A stretch of 13,110 nt of DNA from a virus. Location of the stretch: the UHGV virus genome UHGV-0162637. One strand, written 5' to 3'. Each line of letters opens with the position of its first letter. Position 1 is the first letter of the stretch. The notes beneath the pieces were generated by a model, which was not told the origin of the DNA, searched no databases, and saw only the letters and a list, made by a program, of their open reading frames with translations. Positions 1 through 13,060 of this stretch are shown piece after piece. A program made the translations under genes and the position numbers.

Positions 1-49
1 AGATAAAAGAAATCCCCGCGAGTGCGAGGATTGTTATGTAATATTTGGT

Positions 50-331
50 TTAATCATCTATATGTTTTGTACAGAGAGGGCAAGTATCGTTTCCACCGTA
101 CTCGTGATAATAATTTTGCACGGTATCAGTCATTTCTCGCACATTGCAGAATGGGGATTTGTCTTCATTAGACTTATAAACCTTCATGGAATATTTGTAT
201 GCCGACTCTATATCTATACCTTCATCTACATAAACACCTTCGTGATGTCTGCATGGAGACAAGACACCGGATCTGCACAACATTGATAACGCCCAATCTT
301 TTTGCTCAGACTCTAACTCATTGATACTCAT
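50..331 (-). CDS. Ea8.5-like small Cys-rich phage protein (93 aa), function unknown
   Basis: Intact 282-nt ORF with ATG at 331 preceded by AAGGAG at about 8 nt. Same length and relative position as lambda ea8.5 (recalled); several Cys residues including a CPLC motif suggest metal binding. No sequence identity was verified. Confidence 0.55.
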   Translation of the reverse strand: MSINELESEQKDWALSMLCRSGVLSPCRHHEGVYVDEGIDIESAYKYSMKVYKSNEDKSPFCNVREMTDTVQNYYHEYGGNDTCPLCTKHIDD

Positions 332-533
332 TTATAAACTCCTTGCAATGTATGTCGTTTCAGCTAAACGGTATCAGCAATGTTTATGTAAAGAAACAGT
401 AAGATAATACTCAACCCGATGTTTGAGTACGGTCATCATCTGACACTACAGACTCTGGCATCGCTGTGAAGACGACGCGAAATTCAGCATTTTCACAAGC
501 GTTATCTTTTACAAACCCGTATTCCTGCTCATA

Positions 534-1058
534 TTACTCTCCTTTGATGCGAATGCCTGTTGCAATGCTGTTTATGATGCTGTCAGTGCATGGGGTAGAA
601 AGCTGGGCATCTCCAGCAATTTTCATGACCTCAACATCTGCATATCGAATACCGAGGTGTATCAGACCGGCTATACCTGACTTAAGCCGAGCATTTTCCA
701 TAAACAGATCCTTTGCCCGCTGTTTTTCTGCCTCAAGCTCAACGCGCAACTTCCCTACCGTTAACGCAATTTCCTCGTTCTCCTGATCGCGGCGTTTTAT
801 GTATTGCTGGTTTCTTTCCCGTTCATCCAGCAGCGCCTGCACTACTTCAGGGTTGAAAGCTGCGATATAACGAGCGTTGTTCTCTGCGTTTTTCTGTTCG
901 TCGAATCCTGGCCAGTCGACAATATCTCCGTGATGATTATCACCTGGTGTGTGTACGGCGTACGTGCCGTATTTGCCCGGCGAAATAAATGCGACCCATT
1001 CACCCTGTGTTGCCTGTTTTGCTAACTCACGCAGTGCCTGATAGTCAATCTTGCTCAC
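534..1058 (-). CDS. Ead/Ea22-like family phage protein (174 aa)
   Basis: GTG start at 1058 preceded by AAGGAGG at 6 nt; GTGA overlap with the stop of the upstream gene (translational coupling). Contains an AAFNPEVVQALLDERE-type segment that I recall as typical of Ead/Ea22-like proteins. Confidence 0.65.
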   Translation of the reverse strand: MSKIDYQALRELAKQATQGEWVAFISPGKYGTYAVHTPGDNHHGDIVDWPGFDEQKNAENNARYIAAFNPEVVQALLDERERNQQYIKRRDQENEEIALTVGKLRVELEAEKQRAKDLFMENARLKSGIAGLIHLGIRYADVEVMKIAGDAQLSTPCTDSIINSIATGIRIKGE

Positions 1059-1606
1059 TGGTTGCCTCCTTTGCGAAGCTGGTCGGCGAACAAACGTACA
1101 CTAGACGCTTCACTGCGTAGAAACTTAACGGCATAATCAAAACCACCTCGTTCTGCGTCGTCTGCTCCGTTGTCGAGGTTATCTGCGTACATCTCTACCC
1201 CCTGCGCCCGTACTTCAGCCAGGAAAGCATCGGTGGCTGGGGTTTCGATATCGTTAATTTCAGGAAGAATCTCTTCCCATGTGGCGATATCGCCATTCAA
1301 ATGCCATCCGGCAATTCCACTGGAGTTATCCGCAACACTGCGAACGGCTTCAATAGTTTCGAGCATTACCGCATTCTCCGCCGCAAGCGCCGAAAACTTC
1401 TCGTGTGCCAACTTAACAGCTGCATCAGCCTGCTTAATTGACTCAATCGCTCTCTGCTGGTCTTCGGACAGAGCCGAAATCTTGGCCTCCGCTTCAGCAA
1501 ATTTACGCACCAGATATTCAGCGTTTGTTTCGTTAACCTTTAAATCACTTGGGATGCATTTATCTTTCAGAAAACCATCCATCTCAATTAGTGACATTTG
1601 TTTCAT
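1055..1606 (-). CDS. Ea22-like phage protein (183 aa), function unknown
   Basis: ATG at 1606 with GGAGTGGG upstream; ATGA overlap with the stop of the upstream ORF. Size (552 nt) and position match lambda ea22 (recalled). Acidic, predicted coiled-coil-rich. Confidence 0.6.
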
Positions 1607-1767
1607 TTTTTCCCACTCCGCAACATCGCATTCAGATATTTGTTTTGATTTACTGACGGAAAAGAATTTCTCTTAAGCAATTCCTCTCTCGATGGCATTG
1701 GCTTTACGCGCTGGCGAATAATCATTTCTGCCGGAAGAATGCCGGGATTGTATGCAAGTCCTCTCAT
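1603..1767 (-). CDS. hypothetical small phage protein (54 aa)
   Basis: ATG at 1767 with GAGGAA 6 nt upstream, immediately after the TGA of the preceding gene; 3' end overlaps the Ea22-like start (ATGA). The longer 104-aa version in the ORF track overlaps the upstream gene in another frame and is unlikely. Confidence 0.4.
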
Positions 1768-1777
1768 GGTAAATTCC

Positions 1778-2071
1778 TCAGTCATTACTGATAGCGCCAT
1801 AGCGTGAGCGGTAATTACGCAGGCGCGGGTCAATTTCAGGGAAGTGGGTATATGTGGCTTTGCGGAATGGTCGGATTGATGTCTGGTAAATTCGCTCGCG
1901 TTCTTCTTTCTCTGCAAGCCATATACAGTGGCGAAATTCCTTTTCCTTTTTCGTTTCCTGCGGTAGCGACATTATCCGATCGTAGTTTTTTCTGAATTTA
2001 TCCAGCACCTCCGATACGGAATTGCCGGAACAGCGGCGCGGGTCATCCGCACCATACAGAGGCGCTGGCAT
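1778..2071 (-). CDS. hypothetical phage protein (97 aa); lies where P22 carries abc1/abc2, possibly Abc2-like (speculative)
   Basis: ATG at 2071 with AAGGA about 8 nt upstream, 23 nt after the SSB-like stop; the track ORF begins at a TTG further upstream. Position just downstream of erf and the 97-aa size resemble P22 abc2 (recalled, not verified). Confidence 0.5.
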
Positions 2072-2094
2072 AATGGAATCCTTATTTTGCAAAT

Positions 2095-2478
2095 CTAGAA
2101 GGGAATTGAATCGTCGTATTCAGGATGATTTTGATGATTGCTACTTTGCTGCTGTTGGCTGTTTCCTGAAGTTGCAAATCCAATCTTTGCATTCAGTAAT
2201 TCAAGATTGATTGATTGACCATTTTGCCCCTGATAAACATCAACCCTGATGTTTTCTCCGGTAATTTCAACAATGCCACCTTCAACAAGAACACTACGGT
2301 AGTAATCCGCTTGCGCTCCCGGCTTGGCAAATACAACGGCGCTGTAGTTTGTCCATTCTTTCTTTTTTGTCTGGCGATCGTAATACTGAACGCCAGCACG
2401 GATGTTGAATCCGATATTTTCCCCGGCCTGAAACTCTCTTGCGGGCTTGTTTAGTCTTACAGTAATCGAATGTGCCAT
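2095..2478 (-). CDS. ssb: single-stranded DNA-binding protein (SSB-like, OB fold, 127 aa)
   Basis: ATG at 2478 overlaps the erf stop (TAATG) and has AAGGAG upstream. The protein shows the SSB core pattern (EWTNYSAVVFAKPGAQADYY...VLVEGGIVEI), a Gln/Ser-rich linker and the acidic C-terminal tail DDSIPF (compare E. coli SSB DDDIPF). The 157-aa track ORF carries a non-coding N-terminal extension. Confidence 0.75.
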   Translation of the reverse strand: MAHSITVRLNKPAREFQAGENIGFNIRAGVQYYDRQTKKKEWTNYSAVVFAKPGAQADYYRSVLVEGGIVEITGENIRVDVYQGQNGQSINLELLNAKIGFATSGNSQQQQSSNHQNHPEYDDSIPF

Positions 2479-3083
2479 TAAGCAGCCGCTCCTTCTAATT
2501 CGTCTCGTCTGATGTTGTAAACGTCCTGCGCTTTGTGCTGCTCCGGTGTGCCTTCGAGCATCTTCCACGCTTTGGCGAACGCCTGTTTAAGCTCTTCTAC
2601 GGTGTTTTTCTGCATTGCTGCGTCAGTGAATGCTTTTAGAACCTGTTCAGGTGTAGGTGATGGTTTTGATTGCTTTGCTGCTGCGTTCTGCTGATGTTTA
2701 TGCTCGTCTGTATCTGCATCTTTCGCATCATCAATGCCGAACAAACCATTGAGGCAATACTTGCGTGCATAAGAGCTTGTGGCTCCCGTAACTTGTGCAG
2801 AATCCATTCCTTTCTTGCTTTCTTCCTCTCGTGCAAGAGCGGTTGCTGTATGACTGTTTTCGCCATCAGTAATAGTTGCCGTGGCTTTCACGTAATACCG
2901 TTCACCAATCAACACAACTTCATCGCTGATTGATAAAAACAGGCCATTCAGTAACGGCTTAACACCCTCAAGAATGTCTTCGCAGCTTCTGTATTTATAT
3001 TTGCCGAATGAGTTGTATTGATTCTTTGGCGCGTTCAGATTCTCCTGAATAGCTGCCAGTCTTGCGTAAAATTCTTTGCTCAT
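2478..3083 (-). CDS. erf: Erf (essential recombination function) single-strand annealing protein, P22 Erf family
   Basis: Translation from ATG 3083 (MSKEFYARLAAIQENLNAPKNQYNSFGKYKYRSCEDILEGVKPLL...) closely matches my recollection of P22 Erf. The track ORF starts at an upstream TTG; I trimmed to the first ATG. Confidence 0.85.
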   Translation of the reverse strand: MSKEFYARLAAIQENLNAPKNQYNSFGKYKYRSCEDILEGVKPLLNGLFLSISDEVVLIGERYYVKATATITDGENSHTATALAREEESKKGMDSAQVTGATSSYARKYCLNGLFGIDDAKDADTDEHKHQQNAAAKQSKPSPTPEQVLKAFTDAAMQKNTVEELKQAFAKAWKMLEGTPEQHKAQDVYNIRRDELEGAAA

Positions 3084-3172
3084 ATGATTGTTCTCAGAAT
3101 GGACATGGCCCAAGGAAATAACGCTGATTTAATACTTCAGTCTTTGCCGCATTTAAAAATACGCGAACACCT

Positions 3173-3343
3173 TCACGATCTCCCTTCTGGCGATACATTA
3201 ACGCCTGCTGAGTGTACATGCGTCTCTGTAACTTGCTCTCCTTCACTGTGGTTGAAAGTGACATGAATATCTCCTTCGTTACCGATTAAATCTTTCATCT
3301 GACGAATGAATTCTTCGTCTGACCAGTTATCTGTAAAACTCAT
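3173..3343 (-). CDS. small phage protein (56 aa) at the Kil/Arf position between cIII and erf
   Basis: ATG at 3343 overlaps the stop of the CIII-like gene (ATGA), as lambda kil overlaps cIII. Identity as Kil or Arf is positional only. Confidence 0.45.
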   Translation of the reverse strand: MSFTDNWSDEEFIRQMKDLIGNEGDIHVTFNHSEGEQVTETHVHSAGVNVSPEGRS

Positions 3344-3510
3344 GGACGGCCTTGTTGTTTCAAAATATCCCAAAGCTTTTCGAGCAAACTTTTCATTCTT
3401 GGTTGTTTAAAGTCTGCTCCGGTTAGAATGTTTTTTCGTGAATGCTGTACCGATAAAATCGGGTTGAAAGGGCGAACCGATGCCGCCCCTGCAATAGCGA
3501 ACTGTTGCAT
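3340..3510 (-). CDS. cIII: CIII-like protein (inhibitor of FtsH-mediated CII degradation), 56 aa
   Basis: ATG at 3510 with GGAG 7 nt upstream. N-terminus MQQFAIAG and the segment SLLEKLWDILKQQGRP resemble lambda CIII (MQYAIAGW..., ...RLIDILNQPGVP, recalled). The track ORF extension upstream runs through a terminator hairpin and is not coding. Confidence 0.65.
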   Translation of the reverse strand: MQQFAIAGAASVRPFNPILSVQHSRKNILTGADFKQPRMKSLLEKLWDILKQQGRP

Positions 3511-3574
3511 AGGATGCTCCTTCTGTTTGATTGCATAACGAAAACGCCTCGAGTGAAGCGTTATTGGTATGCAT

Positions 3575-3600
3575 ATAAAAAGACCCTCACATTGGAGGGC
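3575..3600 (-). terminator. putative intrinsic terminator downstream of the membrane-protein gene
   Basis: On the minus strand: 5-bp GC-rich stem (CCCTC/GAGGG, plus one wobble pair), 6-nt loop, followed by CTTTTTATAT. Lies between the membrane-protein gene and the CIII-like start. Confidence 0.45.
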
Positions 3601-3749
3601 AAAGAAGATTTCCAATAATCAGAACAAGTCGGCTCCTGTTTAGTTACGAGCGACATTGCTCCGTGTATTCACTCGTTGGAATGAATACACAGTGCAGTGT
3701 TTATTCTGTTGTTTATGCCAAAAATAAAGGACGATTATGCGGCCTGAAA

Positions 3750-4199
3750 TTACTTAACCAATGATGCTGCATATTCGATAAGGTAAAGTTTTGGGGCCAG
3801 CCAAATTTTTAACCAAGTCATATTGGTTACTACACCAATAATAAAAATCCCCCACAGAGTCAAAACTCCAACCAATGGCATGATAAGAAGATTAATATCA
3901 CCTTTGCTATCCCAAACCATTGTCGGCCTGTATTTGGGATTTCCTTTCTCCCATGAATATCCTTCATCACCGATTTTACCTGTCTCAACTCTTTGGCACT
4001 GCTTCTTCATAAACCAGAAAACCAGTGGGATTGTTAGAATGGCTATTAATGTTTTAATCAGACTGTCAACCATATTCCATAGCAGCAACTGATGAACAAC
4101 ATCAGGAATCTGTGCTTGGCTAAATGAAACAGCCGCGTCTATTCCATTACTGGCTTTTTGCAGTAGTTCTACGAGAATCTTGTTTGCTTGTTCTTCCAT
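3750..4199 (-). CDS. predicted two-TM inner-membrane protein (149 aa), unknown function; candidate moron
   Basis: Intact ORF with two hydrophobic segments (about residues 47-63 and 108-128) and a charged loop between them. Sits in the slot lambda uses for ea10 between ral and cIII, with no obvious SD. Flanked by an identical 14-mer (3717-3730 and 4238-4251) and followed by a terminator. Confidence 0.7.
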   Translation of the reverse strand: MEEQANKILVELLQKASNGIDAAVSFSQAQIPDVVHQLLLWNMVDSLIKTLIAILTIPLVFWFMKKQCQRVETGKIGDEGYSWEKGNPKYRPTMVWDSKGDINLLIMPLVGVLTLWGIFIIGVVTNMTWLKIWLAPKLYLIEYAASLVK

Positions 4200-4257
4200 A
4201 TATCACATTGATTGTAATAAGCATGAAATTATTTACGGCCAAAAATAAAGGCCACCA

Positions 4258-4458
4258 TCAGGCAGCCTTGTTGTTCTGTTTACCAAATTCTCTGGCAATC
4301 ATTGCCGTCGTTCGTATTGCCCATTTATCGACATATTTCCCATCCTCCATTACAGGAAACATTTCTTCAGGCTTAACCATGCATTCCGATTGCAGCTTGC
4401 ATTCATTGCATCGCTTGAATTGTCCACACCATTGATTCTTATCAATAGTCGTAGTCAT
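4258..4458 (-). CDS. ral: Ral restriction-alleviation protein (66 aa)
   Basis: 66-aa product MTTTIDKNQWCGQFKRCNECKLQSEC... matches my recollection of lambda Ral in length and sequence; position between the N-like gene/sieB and cIII is the same as in lambda. Confidence 0.7.
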   Translation of the reverse strand: MTTTIDKNQWCGQFKRCNECKLQSECMVKPEEMFPVMEDGKYVDKWAIRTTAMIAREFGKQNNKAA

Positions 4459-4528
4459 ACGGATAGTCCTGGTATTGTTCCATCACATCCTGAGGATGCT
4501 CTTCGAACTCTTCAAATTCTTCTTCCAT
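4442..4528 (-). CDS. orf28-like acidic peptide (28 aa: MEEEFEEFEEHPQDVMEQYQDYPYDYDY)
   Basis: 87-nt ORF whose 3' end overlaps the ral start by 17 nt, the same arrangement I recall for the 87-nt ORF upstream of ral in lambda. Below the size cut-off of the ORF track; translation done by hand. Confidence 0.35.
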   Translation of the reverse strand: MEEEFEEFEEHPQDVMEQYQDYPYDYDY

Positions 4529-4671
4529 ATATCACCTTAAATAGTGGATTGCGGTAGTAAAGATTGTGCCTGTCTTTTAACCACATCAGGCTCGGTGGTT
4601 CTCGTGTACCCCTACAGCGAGAAATCGGATAAACTCTATTCACCCCTACAGAGAGCAAAAGAGAAACGCAG

Positions 4672-5253
4672 ATGAACAACTCATGGTGGCAGGAACTAAT
4701 GCATTTTTTCCTGCAAGGAATGACACTTAAACAGTTGATTCATATGCTAATCATCCTGATCATATTGATTATTGTTATGCCGGTAAGCGTAAAAGAATGG
4801 ATAAACCTGCATAATCCAGAAATCCTTCCTCATTATTGGATGTATTACATCCTGTTGTTCTGCGTTAGCTATGTGCTTAACGGTGTTGTTAATTCCGCTT
4901 ATCACGCTGTGACTGAAAGAATTGAGGTATCCGCTGCTCAGAAGCGCAAATCTAAAGAAGAAAAATATGTGCAAGATTTGTTTGATTCGTTAACTCTTGG
5001 AGAAAGAGCGTATTTGGCATTCGCTGTAGCCGCGAATAACCAGCTAAAGACAGAAAAGGGAAGCCATGAAGCAATCTCATTGCTCGAAAAAGGGCTTCTT
5101 ATTCGGATACCTTCTGCTACTGGATATCCTGAAATCGACCGTTTTGTTATCCCTGAACGCTATAGAAATGAGTGCTACATTAGGTTTGCTGGGAAGAAAG
5201 ACAGCCTTATGGATGAACTTATCGCTCAGGATAAGCATGGCAAAAACAAGTAA
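4672..5253 (+). CDS. sieB: SieB-like superinfection exclusion protein B (193 aa), membrane anchored
   Basis: Only plus-strand gene inside the leftward operon, between ral/orf28 and the N-like gene as sieB is in lambda and P22 (recalled). N-terminal hydrophobic segments then a charged C-terminal domain. AT-rich. Family assignment is from position, size and topology, not alignment. Confidence 0.65.
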   Translation: MNNSWWQELMHFFLQGMTLKQLIHMLIILIILIIVMPVSVKEWINLHNPEILPHYWMYYILLFCVSYVLNGVVNSAYHAVTERIEVSAAQKRKSKEEKYVQDLFDSLTLGERAYLAFAVAANNQLKTEKGSHEAISLLEKGLLIRIPSATGYPEIDRFVIPERYRNECYIRFAGKKDSLMDELIAQDKHGKNK

Positions 5254-5269
5254 TTAGCAAATGAATTTA

Positions 5270-5542
5270 TCATCTCGCCGTCAGTTGTTTTGATTTCCGG
5301 TAGCCTGCCGAGTAAATGGCTACGTTTGGCAGGCAAATACTTCCACTGCATTCTTCTGCCTTCTTGCAGCGAAGGCTTCCGAGTGATGCTGCTTTGTCTG
5401 CTCTGACGCAACCAGAGAGCTTTAACGCAATTTTTCGCGCCAGTGCTTCATTACTGCGTCGCTCGGCAATAAGTTCTGCTCTGCGAGCTTTGTAGCGGCT
5501 TTTTGCCGTACCTTTGGATTCTTTCCAGACAATGGTTACCAT
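5270..5542 (-). CDS. N: N-like transcription antitermination protein (P22 gp24 family), 90 aa
   Basis: ATG at 5542 with AAGGAG 7 nt upstream. Arginine-rich N-terminal motif (GTAKSRYKARRAELIAERR) and C-terminus ...YSAGYRKSKQLTAR resemble P22 gp24 (recalled). First gene downstream of the PL/nutL region. Confidence 0.75.
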   Translation of the reverse strand: MVTIVWKESKGTAKSRYKARRAELIAERRSNEALARKIALKLSGCVRADKAASLGSLRCKKAEECSGSICLPNVAIYSAGYRKSKQLTAR

Positions 5543-5652
5543 GATGGTCTCCTTTAAGTGGCTTTGGCGCATGACGCGTCGAGGTGCTTATCTTCTCGAT
5601 CGCTGTCTTGCAGCTGCAATTCGCGCCATCCCCAAAACCACTCAAGTTCTGG

Positions 5653-5693
5653 TCTCAACGGTTAGGTTGAGAGTTCGTAGATGTTAAAGAGCC
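5653..5693 (-). promoter_or_regulatory. putative nutL (boxA plus boxB hairpin)
   Basis: Minus strand reads GCTCTTTAACA (boxA, matching the rrn/lambdoid boxA consensus) followed 10 nt later by a 7-bp stem (TCTCAAC/GTTGAGA) with loop CTAACC. Located in the leader between PL and the N-like gene. Confidence 0.5.
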
Positions 5694-5729
5694 TGCCAAT
5701 CTGTTCCGTTTGGCTTCCAGTCTCCTGCT

Positions 5730-5810
5730 GATGGCTTAAATTTAAGACTTCTTAATTTGTTGGTCAAGTGTATTTTTGAAGAAAACTTAATTTTATGGGC
5801 GTGAATTTAG
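5730..5810 (-). promoter_or_regulatory. OL/PL region: leftward early promoter with P22-type operator
   Basis: Minus strand has -35 TTGACC (plus 5762-5767), a 17-nt spacer and -10 TAAATT (plus 5739-5744). The palindromic operator AATTTAAGACTTCTTAATTT (5738-5757) carries the TTAAG/CTTAA half-sites of P22 C2 operators and overlaps the promoter. Confidence 0.5.
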
Positions 5811-5832
5811 TTTGTCTTTGATTTTTAACGGG

Positions 5833-5857
5833 AAATAAAAAAGGGGCGAAAGCCCCT
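5833..5857 (-). terminator. intrinsic terminator immediately after the repressor gene
   Basis: Minus strand: TAA stop, then GGGGC-TTTC-GCCCC hairpin followed by TTTTTTATTT. Classic rho-independent terminator. Confidence 0.75.
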
Positions 5858-6507
5858 TAAGGAAGGTTTGCTAGCTTGGCATCAACGACAACGCCAATGA
5901 TTTTACAGTTCCCATTGATTTCAATCATTGGGTATTGTGGATTGAGTGGTTTCAGGAATTTTCTACCGGCATCAATAACTAACTTTTTGAATGTCGCCTC
6001 GTTTTCTCCTTCAAGTTTGGCGACTACCAGCTTTCCATTACGTGGTTCGACTTCTGGGTCGACGAGAATAATCATCCCCTCAGGAATACTCAGTCCTGCC
6101 GGGGCAGTCATTGAATCGCCTTTAACGTCGAGCCAAAAAGAGTCTTCAGAACAATCTACCGTTGTGTCGTACCAGTTATCTATTGCACGCCTATGATATG
6201 GCTCTACAGCTTCCATCCAACATCCTGCGCTTACCCAACTAATTAGAGGATACGAACCTCTTGGATCATGCCTGCTGTGATAGGCAATGTTTGAAAGACT
6301 ATCCTCTCCTTTCAACAGGTAATCAGGGGAGCACTGCAAAGCCTTGGCTAAGGCCAATAGGTTTTCGCCATTGGGCTCAGTTTCAGATCGCTCCCATTGG
6401 GAAATAGCAACATTAGACACGCCAACCATCTTTCCAAGGGCAGCCTGCCTAATCTTGAGTTCTTTTCTGCGAGCGCGAATACGCTCACCCATCAGTTGTG
6501 TATTCAT
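5857..6507 (-). CDS. c2: C2/CI-type prophage repressor (HTH plus S24 LexA-like autopeptidase domain), P22 C2 family
   Basis: 216-aa product MNTQLMGERIRARRKELKIRQAALGKMVGVSNVAISQWERSE...GVVVDAKLANLP matches my recollection of P22 C2 nearly throughout. Divergent from cro across an operator region. Confidence 0.9.
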   Translation of the reverse strand: MNTQLMGERIRARRKELKIRQAALGKMVGVSNVAISQWERSETEPNGENLLALAKALQCSPDYLLKGEDSLSNIAYHSRHDPRGSYPLISWVSAGCWMEAVEPYHRRAIDNWYDTTVDCSEDSFWLDVKGDSMTAPAGLSIPEGMIILVDPEVEPRNGKLVVAKLEGENEATFKKLVIDAGRKFLKPLNPQYPMIEINGNCKIIGVVVDAKLANLP

Positions 6508-6587
6508 AGTTAAGACATCTTAAATAAACTTGACTTAAGATTCCTTTGGTGGATAATTTAAGTGTTCTTTAATTTCGGAGCGAGTCT
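6508..6587. promoter_or_regulatory. OR operator region with PR (and divergent PRM)
   Basis: Three 18-bp P22-type operators: AGTTAAGACATCTTAAAT (6508-6525), a TTAAG-containing site around 6528-6549, and ATTTAAGTGTTCTTTAAT (6556-6573, as I recall for P22 OR1). PR: -35 TTGACT (6530-6535), -10 GATAAT (6552-6557), GGAG SD before cro. Confidence 0.8.
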
Positions 6588-6773
6588 ATGTACAAAAAAG
6601 ATGTTATTGACCACTTCGGAACCCAGCGTGCTGTTGCTAAAGCACTAGGCATTAGCGATGCAGCAGTCTCTCAGTGGAAAGAAGTTATCCCAGAGAAAGA
6701 CGCCTATCGATTGGAAATCGTTACAGCTGGCGCCCTGAAGTATCAAGAAAGTGCTTACCGCCAAGCGGCATAA
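6588..6773 (+). CDS. cro: Cro repressor (P22 Cro family), 61 aa
   Basis: MYKKDVIDHFGTQRAVAKALGISDAAVSQWKEVIPEKDAYRLEIVTAGALKYQESAYRQAA matches P22 Cro as recalled; transcribed rightward from PR. Confidence 0.9.
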   Translation: MYKKDVIDHFGTQRAVAKALGISDAAVSQWKEVIPEKDAYRLEIVTAGALKYQESAYRQAA

Positions 6774-6780
6774 GCAAATT

Positions 6781-6820
6781 GCTCTTTAACAGTTCTGGCC
6801 TTTCACCTCTAACCGGGTGA
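6781..6820 (+). promoter_or_regulatory. putative nutR (boxA plus boxB hairpin)
   Basis: GCTCTTTAACA (6781-6791), identical to the boxA of the putative nutL, followed 11 nt later by hairpin TCACC-TCTAACCG-GGTGA. The loop shares CTAACC with the nutL hairpin loop. Confidence 0.5.
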
Positions 6821-6888
6821 GCAAACATCAGCGGCAAATCCATTGGGTGTGCCGCTATAACTCAATACCAATATAGGAAAATTAACAA

Positions 6889-7185
6889 ATGGCACAAGCA
6901 AGCTACAGCAAGCCAACACAGCGAGAAATTGATCGCGCTGAAACTGATTTACTCATCAACCTGTCAACGCTTACCCAGCGCGGTCTGGCAAAGATGATTG
7001 GCTGTCATGAATCGAAGATAAGCAGAACGGACTGGAGATTTATTGCTTCGGTCTTGTGTGCTTTCGGAATGGCATCAGACATCAGTCCGATTAGCAGGGC
7101 TTTTAAGTATGCGCTTGATGAAATCACAAAGAAAAAATCCCCGGCCGCCACCGAGGATTTTAAGCAAATTGATATGCAATTCTGA
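6889..7185 (+). CDS. cII: CII-like transcriptional activator (lambda CII / P22 C1 family), 98 aa
   Basis: AGGAAA SD; C-terminus ...TKKKSPAATEDFKQIDMQF parallels lambda CII ...TNKKRPAATERSEQIQMEF (recalled); central HTH-like segment; canonical position after cro and nutR. Confidence 0.85.
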   Translation: MAQASYSKPTQREIDRAETDLLINLSTLTQRGLAKMIGCHESKISRTDWRFIASVLCAFGMASDISPISRAFKYALDEITKKKSPAATEDFKQIDMQF

Positions 7186-7217
7186 GGGAATTACTGGATC
7201 AATCCACAGGAGTAATT

Positions 7218-7379
7218 ATGACAAAACGTCGTAAGAAATACCAGGAAAAAGAAGAGATTCGACACCCTGATTCACCTGAGGGATTAGTGGTAGCCGCAGC
7301 AAATAACAGGGCGTTCGCAGAGCGCCTTGTTGGTGTTTACAGACTAGCCAAAGCAGGAGTGAAACATGGGCGTCGTTAA
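7218..7379 (+). CDS. hypothetical small basic protein (53 aa) between cII and the O-like gene
   Basis: ATG at 7218 preceded by ACAGGAG at 6 nt; product MTKRRKKYQEKEEIRHPDSPEGLV... . Its 3' end overlaps the O-like start by 14 nt. Below the ORF-track size cut-off. Confidence 0.4.
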   Translation: MTKRRKKYQEKEEIRHPDSPEGLVVAAANNRAFAERLVGVYRLAKAGVKHGRR

Positions 7380-8256
7380 GTTAGCTGATTACAGGCATAA
7401 CCCTGTACAACATCAGGAGGCATCCAGTATGGGGTATGTCTCTATACACCGCCAGTTTATGGACAGCAGGCTCTATAAGGACTCTCAGGCAGTACATCTT
7501 TGGCTTCACTTAATCCTCAAGGCTAATCACGAATCTACTGTCGTCAATACGGATATCGGTCCGATAACTGTTGATCGCGGTCAGATGATAACTGGACGCC
7601 CGTCGCTGGTCAGAGAAACATTCATTCCAGACAACAAAGTTCGGAGCTTATTACGGACTTTTGAGTCGAAAGGGATGCTTAATATTTGCTCGATGGGGAA
7701 GAAATTTAGCCTGTTTACAATTGTTAAATATGACGATTTTCAGGCAAAAAATTGTCCAACGGTTGTCCAACGATTGTCCAACGCAACCCCCAGTAATGGC
7801 GCGGCTCTCAGCGGAGATTGTCCAACGGTTGTCCAACGATTGTCCATAAACAATAATATAAATAATATCTCTAATACTGACGTATTAGAGAGTACCGCAG
7901 CAGACAAAAAGTCTGACAAGAAAAAACCTTCCGTTAGCTGTCAGGATGTTGTCGATGCTTACCACGAAATCCTTCCTGAAGCGCCAAGAATCCGCGCACT
8001 GAATGACAAGCGTAAAAACCAGATCCGAACGTTCTGGCGCAAAGCCGGAGTAATAACACGTCAACTTGACGGGCATGGGTTCACGATGCAGGACTGGAGA
8101 AATTATTTGAGCTACGTTGGCGAAAATTGCCGATGGATGTTCGAAGAGCGCCCAAACCATCAACGCGGAACCGTCTGGCACAAAAAGGGATTTGATTTCC
8201 TGCTTAACGATAATACCTACCTGAAAGTTCGTGAGGGTGAACACGATGACCGATAA
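7366..8256 (+). CDS. O: replication initiator protein (lambda O-like), origin iterons embedded in the gene
   Basis: Position after cII; the iteron cluster in mid-gene is translated as the repeat CPTVVQRLSN. AGGAG SD before ATG 7366; an alternative in-frame ATG at 7429 has an AGGAGG SD, so the true start may be 7429. Confidence 0.8.
   Translation: MGVVKLADYRHNPVQHQEASSMGYVSIHRQFMDSRLYKDSQAVHLWLHLILKANHESTVVNTDIGPITVDRGQMITGRPSLVRETFIPDNKVRSLLRTFESKGMLNICSMGKKFSLFTIVKYDDFQAKNCPTVVQRLSNATPSNGAALSGDCPTVVQRLSINNNINNISNTDVLESTAADKKSDKKKPSVSCQDVVDAYHEILPEAPRIRALNDKRKNQIRTFWRKAGVITRQLDGHGFTMQDWRNYLSYVGENCRWMFEERPNHQRGTVWHKKGFDFLLNDNTYLKVREGEHDDR
7753..7880. repeat. lambdoid replication origin: six iterons plus AT-rich region
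   Basis: TTGTCCAACG at 7753, 7764 and 7775, then again at 7818 and 7829, with a variant TTGTCCATAA at 7840 (11-bp periodicity, two clusters 33 bp apart), followed by an AT-rich stretch 7850-7880. Same architecture as lambda ori inside O. Confidence 0.8.
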
Positions 8257-8788
8257 TTTTTATGCGCCGCCCCATAGCATCGAGGCAGAGCAGGCGGTGA
8301 TTGGTGGATTGCTTCTGGATGATGACAGCAGTGAGCGCGTCCAGAAAGTTCTGGCGATGCTGAAGCCTGATTCATTTTACAGCCGACCACACAAAATCCT
8401 TTTCGAAGAAATAACCAGAATGCACCGGGAGCAAAAGCCAGTAGATGGCCTGACGCTTTTCGATGAACTGGAGCGTAAATCGTTAACGGTGTCTGTTGGC
8501 GGTTTTGCTTATATCGCTGAGATCGCAAAGAACACGCCAAGCGCAGCAAACATCGTTGCCTATGCAATGCAGGTTCGTGAAACCGCAATGGAACGCTACG
8601 CCATCAACCGCATGACTGAAGCGACGGAATTGCTCTATCTCACAGTAAAAGCCGCCGGTGTGTGGGCGGGTGGCATTGAAACACCTTCGGTGGAAACTCC
8701 ATCGGAAGGTTCAAAATTTTTTGGTTTTGATATGGATAACGAATTCATCAGTGGTTTTGATGTAGGAGCATGGGGAAAATTACTCTGA
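8246..8788 (+). CDS. DnaB-family replicative helicase, N-terminal domain only (truncated, likely non-functional fragment)
   Basis: ATG 8246 with GAGGG SD, overlapping the O stop. Residues PPHSIEAEQAVIGGLLLD...SVGGFAYIAEIAKNTPSAANIVAYA align with the E. coli DnaB N-terminal domain (recalled). Similarity ends after about 140 aa and the ORF stops at 181 aa; the RecA-like ATPase domain is absent. Confidence 0.7.
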   Translation: MTDNFYAPPHSIEAEQAVIGGLLLDDDSSERVQKVLAMLKPDSFYSRPHKILFEEITRMHREQKPVDGLTLFDELERKSLTVSVGGFAYIAEIAKNTPSAANIVAYAMQVRETAMERYAINRMTEATELLYLTVKAAGVWAGGIETPSVETPSEGSKFFGFDMDNEFISGFDVGAWGKLL

Positions 8789-9690
8789 TGGCTAAAAATG
8801 AATTTAAACCATTTGCAACTGGCTCTGGTGCTAACGTAACAACTCAGACAGACTGGGAATCATTACCTGTCCTATCTGCTGGCTTTACATCGGGGAAGGC
8901 ATCAAGTGCTCAGGTGAACAAAGGTCTGAGGCAAGGAACGGCAATGGCGGCTGCTGTGGGGCAGTTTATCGCAGATAATACCAGTGAGGATGTGAAAGAT
9001 AATGGTGATATTGCGGGGCTCTCTGCGCAATTAGCGAGTGCGGTAGAGCAGGCTGCAACAGGACGGCTTATTGGTGTTCGCACAATAACGACATCCGGGA
9101 CTTATACGCCAACCCCAGGAACGAAAAGCATTATTGTTGAAGTCCAAGGCGCAGGCGGAGGAGGGGGCGGGGTTGGTACAACTAACTCTACCAGTGTTGC
9201 AGTTGGGTGTGGAGGGGGAGGTGGCGCCTACGCTAAATCCCGTATCACCAATTTAGACTCAGCATATACTGTAACCATTGGAGCTGGTGGAGCTGGTGGG
9301 GTTAACGGTAATGGAGGAAACGGTGGTGGATCTTCTTTCGGATCTATAACCGCTGGCGGTGGATTTGGTGGTGGTTCAGGAAATGGGGTACCTCCTATTA
9401 TTCAGAACTCACCAGGAATTCCTATAGCATCCGGAGGTAATATTTTAAATCTCTCTGGAGAGAATCCAACTATTGGCATGGCTATATCGACTAGCTCTAT
9501 CATCTCTGGTGGCGGAGGTAATAGTCCATTAGGTGTGGGTGGTAATCCACACGGCTCAGCGGGTATCGGTGTATTGCCGACTGGTTTCGGGGCTGGGGGC
9601 GGTGGGGCTAACGCATATGTGAATAATGCCACCCAATATAACGGAGCCGCCGGTGGTAATGGTATTGTTCTTATCTGGGAGTATGCATGA
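8788..9690 (+). CDS. glycine-rich protein (about 300 aa), possibly phage tail-fibre-like; function unknown
   Basis: Long intact ORF; ATG 8788 overlaps the stop of the helicase fragment (TGATG), with an alternative in-frame ATG at 8770. Non-glycine-rich N-terminal region of about 130 aa, then poly-Gly and GxGG tracts to the C-terminus ...GIVLIWEYA. Family assignment is tentative. Confidence 0.65.
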   Translation: MAKNEFKPFATGSGANVTTQTDWESLPVLSAGFTSGKASSAQVNKGLRQGTAMAAAVGQFIADNTSEDVKDNGDIAGLSAQLASAVEQAATGRLIGVRTITTSGTYTPTPGTKSIIVEVQGAGGGGGGVGTTNSTSVAVGCGGGGGAYAKSRITNLDSAYTVTIGAGGAGGVNGNGGNGGGSSFGSITAGGGFGGGSGNGVPPIIQNSPGIPIASGGNILNLSGENPTIGMAISTSSIISGGGGNSPLGVGGNPHGSAGIGVLPTGFGAGGGGANAYVNNATQYNGAAGGNGIVLIWEYA

Positions 9691-9866
9691 TGAAATATGC
9701 ATTGGTAGAAAATGATGTTGTGATTAACGTTATATTATGGAACGGCGATGGAAAACAATACGATGATTATCTCTGTATAAAGCTTGACGACAATAGCGTT
9801 GTTGGTGTTGGGTATACATATTCAGAGGGTAGGTTTTTGCCCCCTGAATATATTGATGAATTATAG
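9687..9866 (+). CDS. hypothetical small protein (59 aa) coupled to the glycine-rich gene
   Basis: ATG overlaps the stop of the glycine-rich ORF (ATGATGA); product MMKYALVENDVVINVILWNGDGKQYDDYLCIKLDDNSVVGVGYTYSEGRFLPPEYIDEL. Its 3' end overlaps the convergent acyltransferase stop by 6 nt. Below the ORF-track size cut-off. Confidence 0.35.
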   Translation: MMKYALVENDVVINVILWNGDGKQYDDYLCIKLDDNSVVGVGYTYSEGRFLPPEYIDEL

Positions 9867-10955
9867 TGGTGAAATATTTTTACTCATTATTAGTCTCCCT
9901 GTTCTTATAAATTTCTTTTCTACATATCTATATGATAAATCAGAAAAGACAACTAGCAAAAGAATGAAAGCGAAGAAGTATATAACTTTGTTTTCGTAAA
10001 TGACGGTGTTAAGGGAGAGTTTGTTCAAAACCTCCCTTGTTACATGTAGTAATGGTAAATGGCAAAGATAAATGCTATAAGATCTATCCCCAATCCAGTC
10101 CAGCATTTTATATGCTGGATTATCTTTTTTATCTACCACACCACCACTAATAAAACATAGAAATAATAATGCACCAGCAAAACCAATCGCAGGTAATGTC
10201 AATCTATAGTTAAAGTGCTGAGGGGCAACGAGTAAAACAAAAATGCAAACTATAATAAAAAATAGTCTTGTGCATTTATTGCTTACATAACACTTGCTTC
10301 CAGTTATGAATATAATTGCTCCCAGAAAGAATGCTTGTGGTCTAATCCACCAACCAATGGATTGATAGTACATTTGAGTTACTGGCAGGAAAGATGCAAT
10401 AGCTACTATGAATATGAAAATAATCGTCAGATTTTTCCTGTTAAAGAGCAGCATGATTGCCGCAATTATAGCATACAGTTGCCATTCCAAAGATAGAGAC
10501 CAGGTCACCGCATTCATTTGGTCACAATCATTTGCTGTTACTGCGCACCTATAGAAGTGGATATTAGAATAACCAAGTAGGGATGTATATAACGTAGTGA
10601 ATGATTTAAGAGGTGAAACACCCCAAGAAGGTTGCATAAAATAAGAGATTATTATACAGATGGTGCCCCATACAAGTAAGCATGGGGCTAGCCTAAATAT
10701 TCTTTTAGATAAAAATAATAAAAATATTTTAGTTGTTCTGCCGGTTTTTTTTATTTCCCCAGTTAAGCTTTTAGCCATCAAATATCCAGATATAGCCAAA
10801 AATATATCAACTCCAGCCCAATAATTAACGTAATTAAAACTGCTCAAATACCAATCTGGCGAAGGTAATCTATTTCTATAATGTTGTAGAATAACCATTA
10901 TTATGGCTACCGCCCTTAGCGCTTGAATGTCAAGGTTTTTATTATTTAGGGTCAT
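9861..10955 (-). CDS. acyltransferase family 3 integral membrane protein (O-antigen acetylase-like, Oac/OafA type)
   Basis: 364-aa polytopic membrane protein with the conserved N-terminal motif LDIQALRAVAIIMVILQHY and many hydrophobic segments. Visibly AT-rich compared with flanking DNA. Lies at the prophage/host boundary where P22- and Sf6-like phages carry O-antigen modification genes (recalled). Confidence 0.85.
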   Translation of the reverse strand: MTLNNKNLDIQALRAVAIIMVILQHYRNRLPSPDWYLSSFNYVNYWAGVDIFLAISGYLMAKSLTGEIKKTGRTTKIFLLFLSKRIFRLAPCLLVWGTICIIISYFMQPSWGVSPLKSFTTLYTSLLGYSNIHFYRCAVTANDCDQMNAVTWSLSLEWQLYAIIAAIMLLFNRKNLTIIFIFIVAIASFLPVTQMYYQSIGWWIRPQAFFLGAIIFITGSKCYVSNKCTRLFFIIVCIFVLLVAPQHFNYRLTLPAIGFAGALLFLCFISGGVVDKKDNPAYKMLDWIGDRSYSIYLCHLPLLHVTREVLNKLSLNTVIYENKVIYFFAFILLLVVFSDLSYRYVEKKFIRTGRLIMSKNISPL

Positions 10956-11887
10956 GCTATACTCATCTTATTTAAGAATAAATATTAGATGGTAATCATA
11001 ACCTACCATCAGCTTGCTTTCATTGCCTGGAGCATGATTGTGGCAAAAAATTAGCGCAAAAAAAACTCAAAACTGGCGAAGGTGTCGATTCGTCTTGCGC
11101 TAATGTTCTGTGCCATTTTTGTGTCACACGCAGTTTGACACCTTAGATCATTTTCAATCATGTACCATCAACTTCATTAGTGTGAATGCGGAGATGGCCT
11201 TTATAAACAGTTAGTTATGCGTGATTCTGCTAATTCGTAATGCGAAGGTCATGTGACGTTACCGTCAATCCAGTCCGCCCACCACTGCATCATTTTTCTG
11301 CGCTTAACGTAGCGGATGTCTCACTATCACACGGTGATGGTCCATTACTGCTTTGTAGAATGGATAGAGAACTGAGGATAAAAAGATATCCCAAAACCCA
11401 AAATCTCATCTTTAGGATTTGCAGAAAGGTAGGCGTGAACAGATACCTACACATGAAGACGGAGCTAGTCCAGATGTGATATTTGTGGTGATCACATACA
11501 TCATCAACGATGCTCGTTATGGTGAGTTTGATGACTACCCGCTGAAGTGAAAATTGTGTTGTGTACCAAATTGCGTACCAAACTAAAATCACAAATCATG
11601 AAACCCTTGTTCATGGCGGTTCTCAGGGGTGTTTCGCGTAATCGTGAAACAAAAAGGTAGATTGTTGCTTACCGTCATTCATCATTAGGTTAAATCCGTT
11701 ATTTCTGCTGTCTGCCAGAGTATCAAATATCACCGTGCTAATCAGCTTTAGCGCCACAATTTGGCAGCGAGTGGCAACAGATCATGTCAGATAAAAATGA
11801 GAGGGTAGTCACATTTTCTTGCACTTTATTCCAGCCAGTTCATAAGTATTTCCGTAAAAAGAACAGCTATTTGAAACTCCTGAGGGT

Positions 11888-13060
11888 TTGCTGTTGAAAC
11901 GCCGTCTTATTATTGCTGCTTCTTTGTTCGTTTTTAACTTATCGTCTGGTTTTGCGGCGGAAAACATTCCTTTTTCACCTCAGCCTCCAGAGATTCATGC
12001 CGGGTCCTGGGTATTGATGGATTACACCACCGGTCAGATCCTCACCGCGGTTAATGAGCATCAACAGCGCAATCCCGCCAGCCTGACAAAGCTGATGACG
12101 GGTTATGTCGTGGATCGCGCTATCGATAGTCATCGCATTACGCCAGACGATATTGTCACCGTGGGGCGCGATGCGTGGGCGAAAGATAATCCGGTGTTTG
12201 TCGGTTCTTCACTGATGTTTTTGAAAGAGGGCGATCGCGTATCGGTACGTGATTTAAGCCGTGGTTTAATTGTGGATTCTGGAAATGACGCTTGTGTTGC
12301 TCTGGCTGACTATATTGCCGGTGGGCAACGGCAGTTTGTTGAAATGATGAACAACTATGCCGAGAAGCTGCATCTCAAGGATACGCATTTTGAAACAGTG
12401 CATGGTCTGGATGCACCTGGCCAGCATAGCTCGGCTTATGATTTAGCTGTGCTTTCTCGCGCTATCATCCACGGCGAGCCCGAGTTTTATCATATGTACA
12501 GTGAGAAAAGTCTCACCTGGAACGGTATCACCCAGCAAAACCGTAACGGGTTGTTGTGGGATAAAACCATGAATGTTGACGGCCTGAAAACGGGTCATAC
12601 TTCTGGTGCCGGGTTTAATCTCATTGCTTCGGCTGTAGATGGGCAGCGTCGTCTCATTGCAGTGGTAATGGGGGCTGACAGTGCAAAAGGTCGTGAGGAA
12701 GAGGCAAGAAAATTACTGCGTTGGGGGCAACAAAACTTTACTACGGTGCAAATTTTGCACCGTGGGAAAAAGGTCGGAACGGAACGCATCTGGTATGGCG
12801 ATAAAGAAAATATCGACCTGGGAACGGAACAAGAGTTCTGGATGGTGCTACCGAAAGCCGAAATTCCACATATCAAAGCCAAATATACCCTTGATGGTAA
12901 AGAGCTCACCGCGCCAATTAGCGCCCATCAGCGGGTAGGGGAAATTGAACTTTACGACCGTGATAAACAGGTGGCGCACTGGCCGCTGGTTACCCTGGAA
13001 TCTGTCGGGGAAGGCGGCATGTTTTCCCGCCTGAGTGATTATTTCCACCATAAGGCCTGA
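11888..13060 (+). CDS. dacD: D-alanyl-D-alanine carboxypeptidase DacD (penicillin-binding protein 6b)
   Basis: 390-aa product with signal peptide and the SxxK (ASLTK), SGN and KTG motifs of class-C low-molecular-weight PBPs; matches E. coli DacD as recalled. The start is a TTG at 11888, so the exact start is uncertain. Confidence 0.9.
   Translation: MLLKRRLIIAASLFVFNLSSGFAAENIPFSPQPPEIHAGSWVLMDYTTGQILTAVNEHQQRNPASLTKLMTGYVVDRAIDSHRITPDDIVTVGRDAWAKDNPVFVGSSLMFLKEGDRVSVRDLSRGLIVDSGNDACVALADYIAGGQRQFVEMMNNYAEKLHLKDTHFETVHGLDAPGQHSSAYDLAVLSRAIIHGEPEFYHMYSEKSLTWNGITQQNRNGLLWDKTMNVDGLKTGHTSGAGFNLIASAVDGQRRLIAVVMGADSAKGREEEARKLLRWGQQNFTTVQILHRGKKVGTERIWYGDKENIDLGTEQEFWMVLPKAEIPHIKAKYTLDGKELTAPISAHQRVGEIELYDRDKQVAHWPLVTLESVGEGGMFSRLSDYFHHKA

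Follow-up and report, generated by a model that had tools for sequence, protein, structure and literature searches.

The viral genome UHGV-0162637 (13,110 nucleotides; this whole stretch is called the window here) carries, near the right-hand boundary of a prophage remnant, a gene for a stand-alone membrane O-acyltransferase of family 3 (Acyl_transf_3; gene and product are called AT3 below) at positions 9861-10955 on the minus strand. The explanation that we favor, with moderate confidence, is that AT3 is a phage-derived O-acyltransferase that serves as a lysogenic-conversion gene and modifies the O-antigen of lipopolysaccharide (LPS) from the genomic slot held by oacB in phage Sf101. AT3 is an uncharacterised member of the phage AT3 lysogenic-conversion acetyltransferases; its set of catalytic motifs is intact, it is under purifying selection, and it lies in a slot known from other conversion genes. 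Background on the functions of AT3 enzymes and on phage seroconversion is available (PMC9558356, PMC9833829, PMC4159516, PMC8787464).

The AT3 reading frame is unbroken from ATG to stop over 364 codons, as determined by open reading frame (ORF) call and translation. The product matches Pfam PF01757 (Acyl_transf_3) over residues 8-341 with 98.6 bits (cutoff 31; E 4.7e-28), covering positions 2-324 of the 326 in the profile, and it also matches PHROG 3333 ('O-acetyltransferase', E 2e-50) and PHROG 6705 ('O-antigen acetylase'). No NCBIfam family was found for the protein, leaving no named subfamily assignable, and a sequence search of the PDB returned no match. Present in the protein are the motifs R14-X10-H25, V49-D50-I-F52-L-A-I-S56-G57, R85-xx-R88, W152-S-L-S-x-E157-W-Q and G289-x-R-S-Y-S-x-Y-L-x-H299; across the 30 homologues from which we built a family profile, R14, H25, D50, F52, S56, G57, R85, R88 and E346 are invariant, as are the motifs that begin at W152 and G289. 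R14/H25 is the R-X10-H pair of transmembrane helix (TMH) 1, and R85/R88 is the RXXR motif at the end of TMH3 that faces the cytoplasm; both motifs are essential in OafB, OafA, Oac and OacB. The AlphaFold2 (AF2) model of the protein (predicted local distance difference test score (pLDDT) 91.4; predicted template modeling score (pTM) 0.90) contains ten membrane-length helices, at residues 8-26, 48-71, 75-107, 151-170, 173-187, 207-222, 227-247, 250-269, 292-314 and 323-360, and the AT3 fold is defined by ten TMH (PMC9833829). The best match of the model to a solved structure was acetyl-CoA-bound human HGSNAT, which has the TmAT fold (probability 0.99, TM ~0.45), and no bacterial AT3 membrane domain was among the solved-structure matches. 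AT3 thus has the full domain, the motifs and the ten-TMH core that define the family, and the original prediction of a family-3 acyltransferase holds. Pfam reports PF01757 alone and no SGNH domain; the protein ends at residue 364, straight after the last AT3 helix, and lacks the C-terminal periplasmic SGNH domain, joined through an eleventh helix, of the AT3-SGNH fusions (OafA, OafB, OatA, PglI).

Mutagenesis has identified R47, H58, W71, R116, R119 and S146 as essential in OacB (PMC8952252) and R14, H25, R71, R74, W138 and E143 as essential in OafB (PMC9833829). When these proteins were aligned with MAFFT, independently of structure, every one of these residues was identical in AT3; the exceptions to this conservation were OafB F42 and OacB F98. 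Comparison with the closest homologue outside E. coli (75% identity) showed purifying selection on the gene (pN of 0.155 versus a pS of 0.77, which is saturated), while the E. coli alleles of AT3 are only 2-8 nucleotides apart, indicating that its spread within the species is recent. The G+C content of the gene is low, as had been noted originally: 33.9% (30% at third codon positions) versus 44.9% for the remaining window. All 400-bp windows with a G+C of 0.35 or less lie inside ~9600-11000, and the window minima fall between ~9600 and 11200. This composition of ~34%, typical for polysaccharide genes, persists in hosts whose own G+C is 51-61%.

The element that carries AT3 is a degraded Sf101-like (P22-like) prophage inserted at sbcB-dacD. 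Positions 1-8638 of the window are the early region of a P22-like prophage. It comprises ea genes, ssb, erf, cIII, sieB, cI, cro and cII together with an O-like replication gene, and it includes the first part of a gene for a DnaB-like helicase; the P22-like homology stops at 8638. At the other end, positions 11265-11666 hold a homologue of Sf101 gp17 and attP-proximal DNA of the right arm of an Sf101-like prophage. This segment is 91.6% identical to the Sf101 DNA (L131, 5802-6203) that lies between oacB and attP, upstream of oacB, and 98.4% identical to the end of the E3 prophage. The attR core of the sbcB-site prophage, CGTAATCGTGAAA, lies at 11637-11649 on the plus strand, where it is an exact match that occurs once in the window (0.03 expected by chance). 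The same 13 bp, CGTAATCGTGAAA, form the attP core of Sf101, which integrates at the same sbcB site (PMC4159516). Homology to the empty sbcB-dacD sites of strains PI24 and TUM9812 starts at 11637, and strain E89 has, next to sbcB, an integrase with 99.2% identity to Sf101 Int. Outside the element lies chromosomal dacD at 11894-13060 on the plus strand (NCBIfam DacD equivalog, 846 bits; annotation of strain MS15047). Given the Sf101-type flank, the att core and the homology to empty sites, AT3 is therefore the last intact gene of the prophage, ~680 bp inside attR, and the proposed position at a prophage boundary was correct.

Although it lies in a P22-like prophage, AT3 is, by sequence comparison, not native to it and came in a cassette from a myovirus. 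Positions 8636-11105, which comprise the 3′ end of a baseplate-wedge gene, a tail-fiber gene, a small ORF, AT3 and DNA upstream of AT3 (assigned by blastn and the PI24 annotation), are 99.84% identical to a contractile-tail (myovirus) prophage integrated at argW in E. coli PI24, and the match to TUM9812 runs on to 11309, ending in ~60 bp of the 3′ end of intS. The left junction, 8635/8636, is an in-frame fusion at which PI24 homology begins. It produces a chimeric ORF (8231-8788, plus strand) that joins the N-terminal domain of the DnaB-like helicase (Pfam, residues 13-117) to the last ~50 codons of the wedge gene (PHROG 587 structural protein, residues 131-179), and it is an illegitimate join of two unrelated prophages. 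The glycine-rich tail-fiber gene of the argW myovirus (8788-9690, plus strand, 300 aa; Pfam Gly_rich_2 and PHROG tail-fiber families) is collinear with the PI24 gene (L003, 14189-15091) and is orphaned in the window, where no other tail genes accompany it. Between it and AT3 always lies a 59-aa ORF, ORF59 (9687-9866, plus strand; PHROG 14370/18617, function unknown), which is found in PI24, TUM9812, E89 and MS15047 and, in a 64-aa version, in Atlantibacter, and which is possibly a fiber accessory protein. As the original prediction had stated, AT3 is convergent to these phage genes; it overlaps the stop of ORF59 by 6 bp.

At the right-hand end of the imported DNA, positions 11256-11309 (minus strand) are what is left of an IntS-type integrase gene, a stub of its 3′ end that blastn shows to be shared boundary sequence. 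The stub is contiguous with intS of TUM9812 (99.6%) and is 87% identical to intS of PI24 and E89 and 91% identical to the 3′ end of Sf6 intS, and it is also found in Sf101 (L131, 5802-5846) and in the E3 prophage (L010, ~6001-6045), whereas the corresponding Sf6 sequence (L095, 2798-2842) is a genuine intS end. In E3 the stub lies downstream of the tailspike gene of an Sf101-like prophage that has no AT3 gene at all. Because E3, Sf101 and the window share the stub, the slot that extends from the receptor-binding gene to the stub can be empty (E3) or hold oacB (Sf101) or AT3 (the window), and the stub is, judging by these alignments, the probable right-hand crossover point of cassette exchange. 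The cassette replaced the region from mid-helicase to the tailspike/oacB end, and AT3 therefore occupies the slot of oacB in Sf101, which is that of oac in Sf6. We also observed that phages which integrate at sbcB with another integrase nevertheless keep ~50 bp of the intS 3′ end beside the oac/oacB slot, apparently as a boundary sequence that mediates the exchange of cassettes.

This mosaic is genuine, and it is inherited. On at least seven contigs from independent samples the identical AT3 allele is intact, and all six of the contigs examined have the mosaic structure. MS15047 has the same AT3-dacD junction, and there IS911 has removed everything to the left of it and left AT3 intact. A further contig with the same mosaic (L134, ENA ERZ842753, 5785-10883) has truncated fiber (248 aa) and cI (119 aa) genes and an intact AT3.

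The layout of the native locus is that of phage conversion genes. In PI24, TUM9812 and E89 the order is fiber (plus), ORF59 (plus), AT3 (minus), intS (minus) and tRNA-Arg, the same layout as in Sf6, where the tailspike gene (plus) is followed by oac (minus), IntS (minus) and an attP for argW. SfII oacD, BTP1 gtrC (OafB) and p24 of Serratia phage vB_SspM_BZS1 are likewise convergent with a receptor-binding gene. AT3 thus occupies the conversion-gene slot of a temperate phage, between the receptor-binding gene and int/att and opposite to the late genes. The original analogy with the O-antigen modification genes of Sf6 and P22-like phages is borne out both by this native Sf6-like order and by the Sf101 oacB slot with its 91.6% identical flank. 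A module for O-antigen modification of another type, gtrABS (yfdGHI) of the K-12 prophage CPS-53/KplE1, presumably lies in the same intS-adjacent argW slot beside tail-fiber genes; unlike AT3, it directs glucosylation through GtrA/B/C, contains no acyltransferase and has no sequence relationship to AT3.

The more distant homologues are often, but not always, found in similar surroundings. A scan of genome contigs with the single AT3 protein gave no matches; an alignment-based scan gave loci, mostly distant orphans. The Atlantibacter homologue (60% identity) is part of the same three-gene cassette with a convergent tail-fiber gene, and the Enterobacter homologue (42%) follows the fiber and fiber-assembly genes of a Mu-like prophage. 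Of the 12 closest relatives in IMG/VR, many of which lie 1-3 kb from a contig end, 10 have a tail-fiber gene as their immediate convergent neighbor; one relative (L117) was counted through the N-terminal identity of its fiber to those of L112, L114 and L118, with no separate scan. In one of these relatives (L118, 645-3172; IMG/VR UViG_3300015265_000153) a second AT3 gene lies directly upstream of the AT3 relative, and both adjoin the tail-fiber gene. Outside phages, the homologue in Pantoea dispersa (55%) is found, together with two more AT3 genes and glycosyltransferase genes, in the interval from hisIE to gnd, a classical O-antigen locus. All three AT3 genes of this locus (LDRY01000001.1; L092, 6776-12471) have a G+C of 31-33% and the glycosyltransferase genes are also low in G+C, compared with 61% for the his operon.

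We compared AT3 with the characterised enzymes Oac, OacB, OafB, OacD, WecH and OpgC and with BZS1 p24; OatA, WbaK, Lag-1, ExoZ, NodX, OacC, phiV10 Oac and D3 Oac stand outside this comparison. Sf6 Oac is 27% identical to AT3 over 360 aa (63 bits with the family profile), Sf101 OacB is 29% identical over 199 aa (E 2e-9; 68 bits with the profile), and the AT3 domain of BTP1 OafB, at 25.6% identity, scored higher with the profile (81 bits, E 3.5e-26) than any other characterised enzyme tested. SfII OacD was rejected as a relative (pairwise E 0.13, no profile match). Two non-LPS alternatives from K-12 were rejected as well: WecH, which acts on enterobacterial common antigen (ECA), had no profile match at E≤10 and only fragments at E 0.3 by BLASTP, and OpgC, which succinylates osmoregulated periplasmic glucans (OPG), had no profile match at E≤10 and nothing by BLASTP. 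Best homology to a non-LPS acyltransferase family, the outcome named at the outset as contrary to the prediction, was thus not seen among the enzymes tested, and within this set AT3 resembles O-antigen acetyltransferases more than the non-LPS AT3 enzymes of E. coli, as far as sequence similarity can tell. Similarity to every characterised enzyme tested is low, and AT3 is therefore a distinct, uncharacterised AT3-only lineage.

The closest parallel in genomic setting is OacB, which carries out 3/4-O-acetylation of rhamnose III in the S. flexneri O-antigen. Like AT3, OacB is an AT3-only protein; its gene is convergent to a receptor-binding gene, and no other gene separates it from attR in an Sf101-type prophage at sbcB-dacD. 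The two share the flank, the 13-bp att core and the critical residues listed above. Unlike AT3, OacB has 390 rather than 364 residues and an extra N-terminal helix, and AT3 resides in E. coli with a non-flexneri O-antigen and was imported through a myovirus cassette. Oac (OacA) of Sf6, which 2-O-acetylates rhamnose I, is also AT3-only, of similar size and found in the same native gene order. Its RxRR arginines R73 and R76 correspond to R85 and R88 of AT3, whereas R75 corresponds to F87, and Sf6 is a podovirus with an endorhamnosidase tailspike whereas the native phage of AT3 has a contractile tail and a glycine-rich fiber. OafB (GtrC of BTP1, Salmonella; rhamnose 2/3-O-acetylation) has R14/H25 at the same numbering, conserves the RXXR motif, W138 and E143, and is encoded convergently with a tailspike gene. 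In contrast to AT3, it is a 640-aa AT3-SGNH fusion with an eleventh helix, and AT3 has neither a gtrA-like partner nor a Dam/OxyR GATC signature upstream. The closest protein in the phage database was BZS1 p24 (29% over 383 aa; 180 bits with the profile), whose gene is convergent with the tail-fiber gene of a Mu-like myovirus. An O-antigen acetylase role was proposed for p24 by its authors (PMC7556043); this function is putative, and p24 adds context only.

By analogy with Oac, OacB and OafB, AT3 would take an acyl group, most likely acetyl, from a cytoplasmic acyl-CoA, pass it through a pore of ~10 transmembrane helices with the help of R14/H25 and R85/R88, and, on the periplasmic side, O-acylate one of the sugars in an envelope polysaccharide. 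The acceptor would most likely be the undecaprenyl-linked repeat of the LPS O-antigen. Surface antigenicity would then change, and phages that depend on that glycan would be kept from adsorbing. What we infer here are the donor of the acyl group, its acceptor, and the expression and phenotype of AT3.

Several results weigh against O-antigen modification, and the strongest of the rivals has the same chemistry acting on another acceptor, namely ECA, LPS core, colanic acid, capsule or another exopolysaccharide (EPS), such that the receptor of the linked fiber would be masked whatever the O-serogroup; we regard this as a possible but clearly less likely explanation. The AT3 gene is present in 4 of 5,426 complete E. 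coli genomes, and no O-antigen cluster was found to be shared among these four carriers: PI24 has O150 wzx/wzy, TUM9812 has O98 wzx/wzy, MS15047 has a rare manB/manC-type cluster whose wzy occurs in only five genomes, none of them another carrier, and E89 (L102, NZ_CP121157.1, 2891506-2895189) has gnd-IS1-galF and no O-antigen cluster. The near-identical cassette (at least 99.6%) thus occurs in strains with O150, O98 and other O-loci, and AT3 is therefore not tied to one O-unit, nor can a specific serotype conversion be named. Activity specific to a single O-unit is hard to reconcile with these loci unless the sugar that it targets occurs in many O-units or the O-loci were exchanged later; a widely shared sugar, another conserved glycan, or O-loci that changed after acquisition remain as readings. 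The pairing in E89 of a lost O-antigen with an AT3 copy disrupted by IS1 (L004, 10262-12043) fits an O-antigen-dependent function, as a single case. Also on the unfavorable side, identity to the serotype-converting enzymes Oac, OacB, OafB and OacD is at most 29%, so that AT3 is not an ortholog of a characterised member; two residues differ from those enzymes (OafB F42 is L53 and OacB F98 is M60); promoter and terminator scans upstream of AT3 gave nothing above chance; relatives at 33-41% identity are orphan genes, with uninformative contexts in Paraburkholderia, Stenotrophomonas and Citrobacter; and the 75% homologue adjoins a cellulose synthase (bcs) operon, bcsB-C-D plus GH8. AT3-only enzymes for ECA, OPG, capsules and EPS are moreover well known (PMC9558356), and the short glycine-rich fiber has no O-antigen-degrading domain recognizable by Pfam or PHROG. 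On the other hand, the profile misses WecH and OpgC yet detects three O-antigen enzymes, the Pantoea homologue lies in an O-antigen locus, the slot is that of oac and oacB, and the 75% homologue lies outside the 58% G+C bcs operon in a separate island of 31-42% G+C, for which reason we judged cellulose modification unlikely. This island (L005, 8001-12645), downstream of the bcsB-C-D/GH8 operon, holds in addition a second AT3 gene and a gene for a 370-aa protein without a Pfam match. Of the original proposal of a serotype-conversion gene, then, family, position and analogy stand, whereas the acetylation of the O-antigen is inferred and is qualified by the low identity, by the arrival of the gene in a myovirus cassette and by the four differing O-genotypes of the carriers, which leave room for an acceptor other than the O-antigen.

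AT3 might instead be a silent passenger, intact only since the mosaic is young and either unexpressed or without an acceptor in its host, so that it will decay. The small distance between the E. coli alleles, the truncation of several members of the 90% cluster together with the IS1-disrupted copy of E89, the lack of a convincing promoter and the heavy deletion of the surrounding prophage are in line with this idea, which we nevertheless consider improbable: purifying selection in the clade is strong and long-term, all catalytic residues are intact, the gene was transferred along with its own upstream region, and it is intact in at least seven independent contigs, as well as in MS15047 next to IS911 and in L134 next to truncated neighbors. 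Least probable is a peptidoglycan O-acetyltransferase of the OatA type, or an enzyme with a non-glycan substrate. In its favor are the kinship of the AT3 domain of OatA with those of OafA/OafB and generic annotations such as 'peptidoglycan/LPS O-acetylase OafA/YrhL', but AT3 has 364 residues and no SGNH domain whereas the reviewed peptidoglycan enzymes are AT3-SGNH fusions (PMC9558356, PMC9833829), and a peptidoglycan enzyme would not be expected to be so tightly linked to the receptor-binding genes of phages and to an O-antigen locus.

A more speculative idea, which we think doubtful, is that the AT3 clade is a portable receptor-masking module coupled to tail-fiber genes. It would acylate a sugar that many surface glycans of E. 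coli share (such as the GlcNAc with which WecA initiates O-units, or ECA or core), so that one cassette would guard several O-serogroups while hopping between the argW myovirus and the sbcB podovirus-type prophage by way of the intS-stub boundary that flanks the oac/oacB slot.

If active, AT3 would decorate the E. coli surface with O-acetyl (or other acyl) groups that in silico O-typing based on wzx/wzy cannot detect. Such decoration can alter the serological reactions of a strain, the epitopes targeted by vaccines and the susceptibility to phages, and is thus relevant to O-antigen vaccines and to phage therapy. This locus illustrates, too, how different temperate phages exchange conversion genes in the form of cassettes at one conserved slot, and how a conversion gene can outlast its prophage, AT3 being intact where the virion genes are lost except for an orphan tail fiber. 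AT3 is otherwise an ordinary example of the well-known phage conversion genes, expected at this slot, and implies no new mechanism.

The DNA upstream of AT3 (10956-11255, minus strand, delimited by blastn) is non-coding and is presumed to hold the promoter region. A 150-bp segment of it, 11106-11255, is present in the window, TUM9812 and MS15047 and missing from PI24 and E89 (blastn), and an Rfam scan of the whole window, this segment included, found no RNA family. A weak sigma-70-like site at 11023-10995 was not above chance. A hairpin followed by a T-rich run lies at 11010-10988 on the minus strand, 33 nucleotides 5′ of the AT3 start; its scan count was not above chance, and it could be an insulator-terminator or a structure of the 5′ untranslated region (5′-UTR). 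Because only one GATC lies upstream of AT3, there is no phase-variation signature of the Dam/OxyR type there, that is, no GATC cluster like those of gtr and OafB. Across the whole window GATC is ~2-fold under-represented, with 24 sites versus 50.7 ± 6.8 in dinucleotide-preserving shuffles, and the count in the shuffles was at least that observed in 200 of 200. Farther to the left, the immunity and exclusion genes at 4672-7185 (sieB, cI with its S24 domain, cro and cII) look intact, and this remnant, without virion genes except for one fiber gene, may still confer immunity and exclusion.

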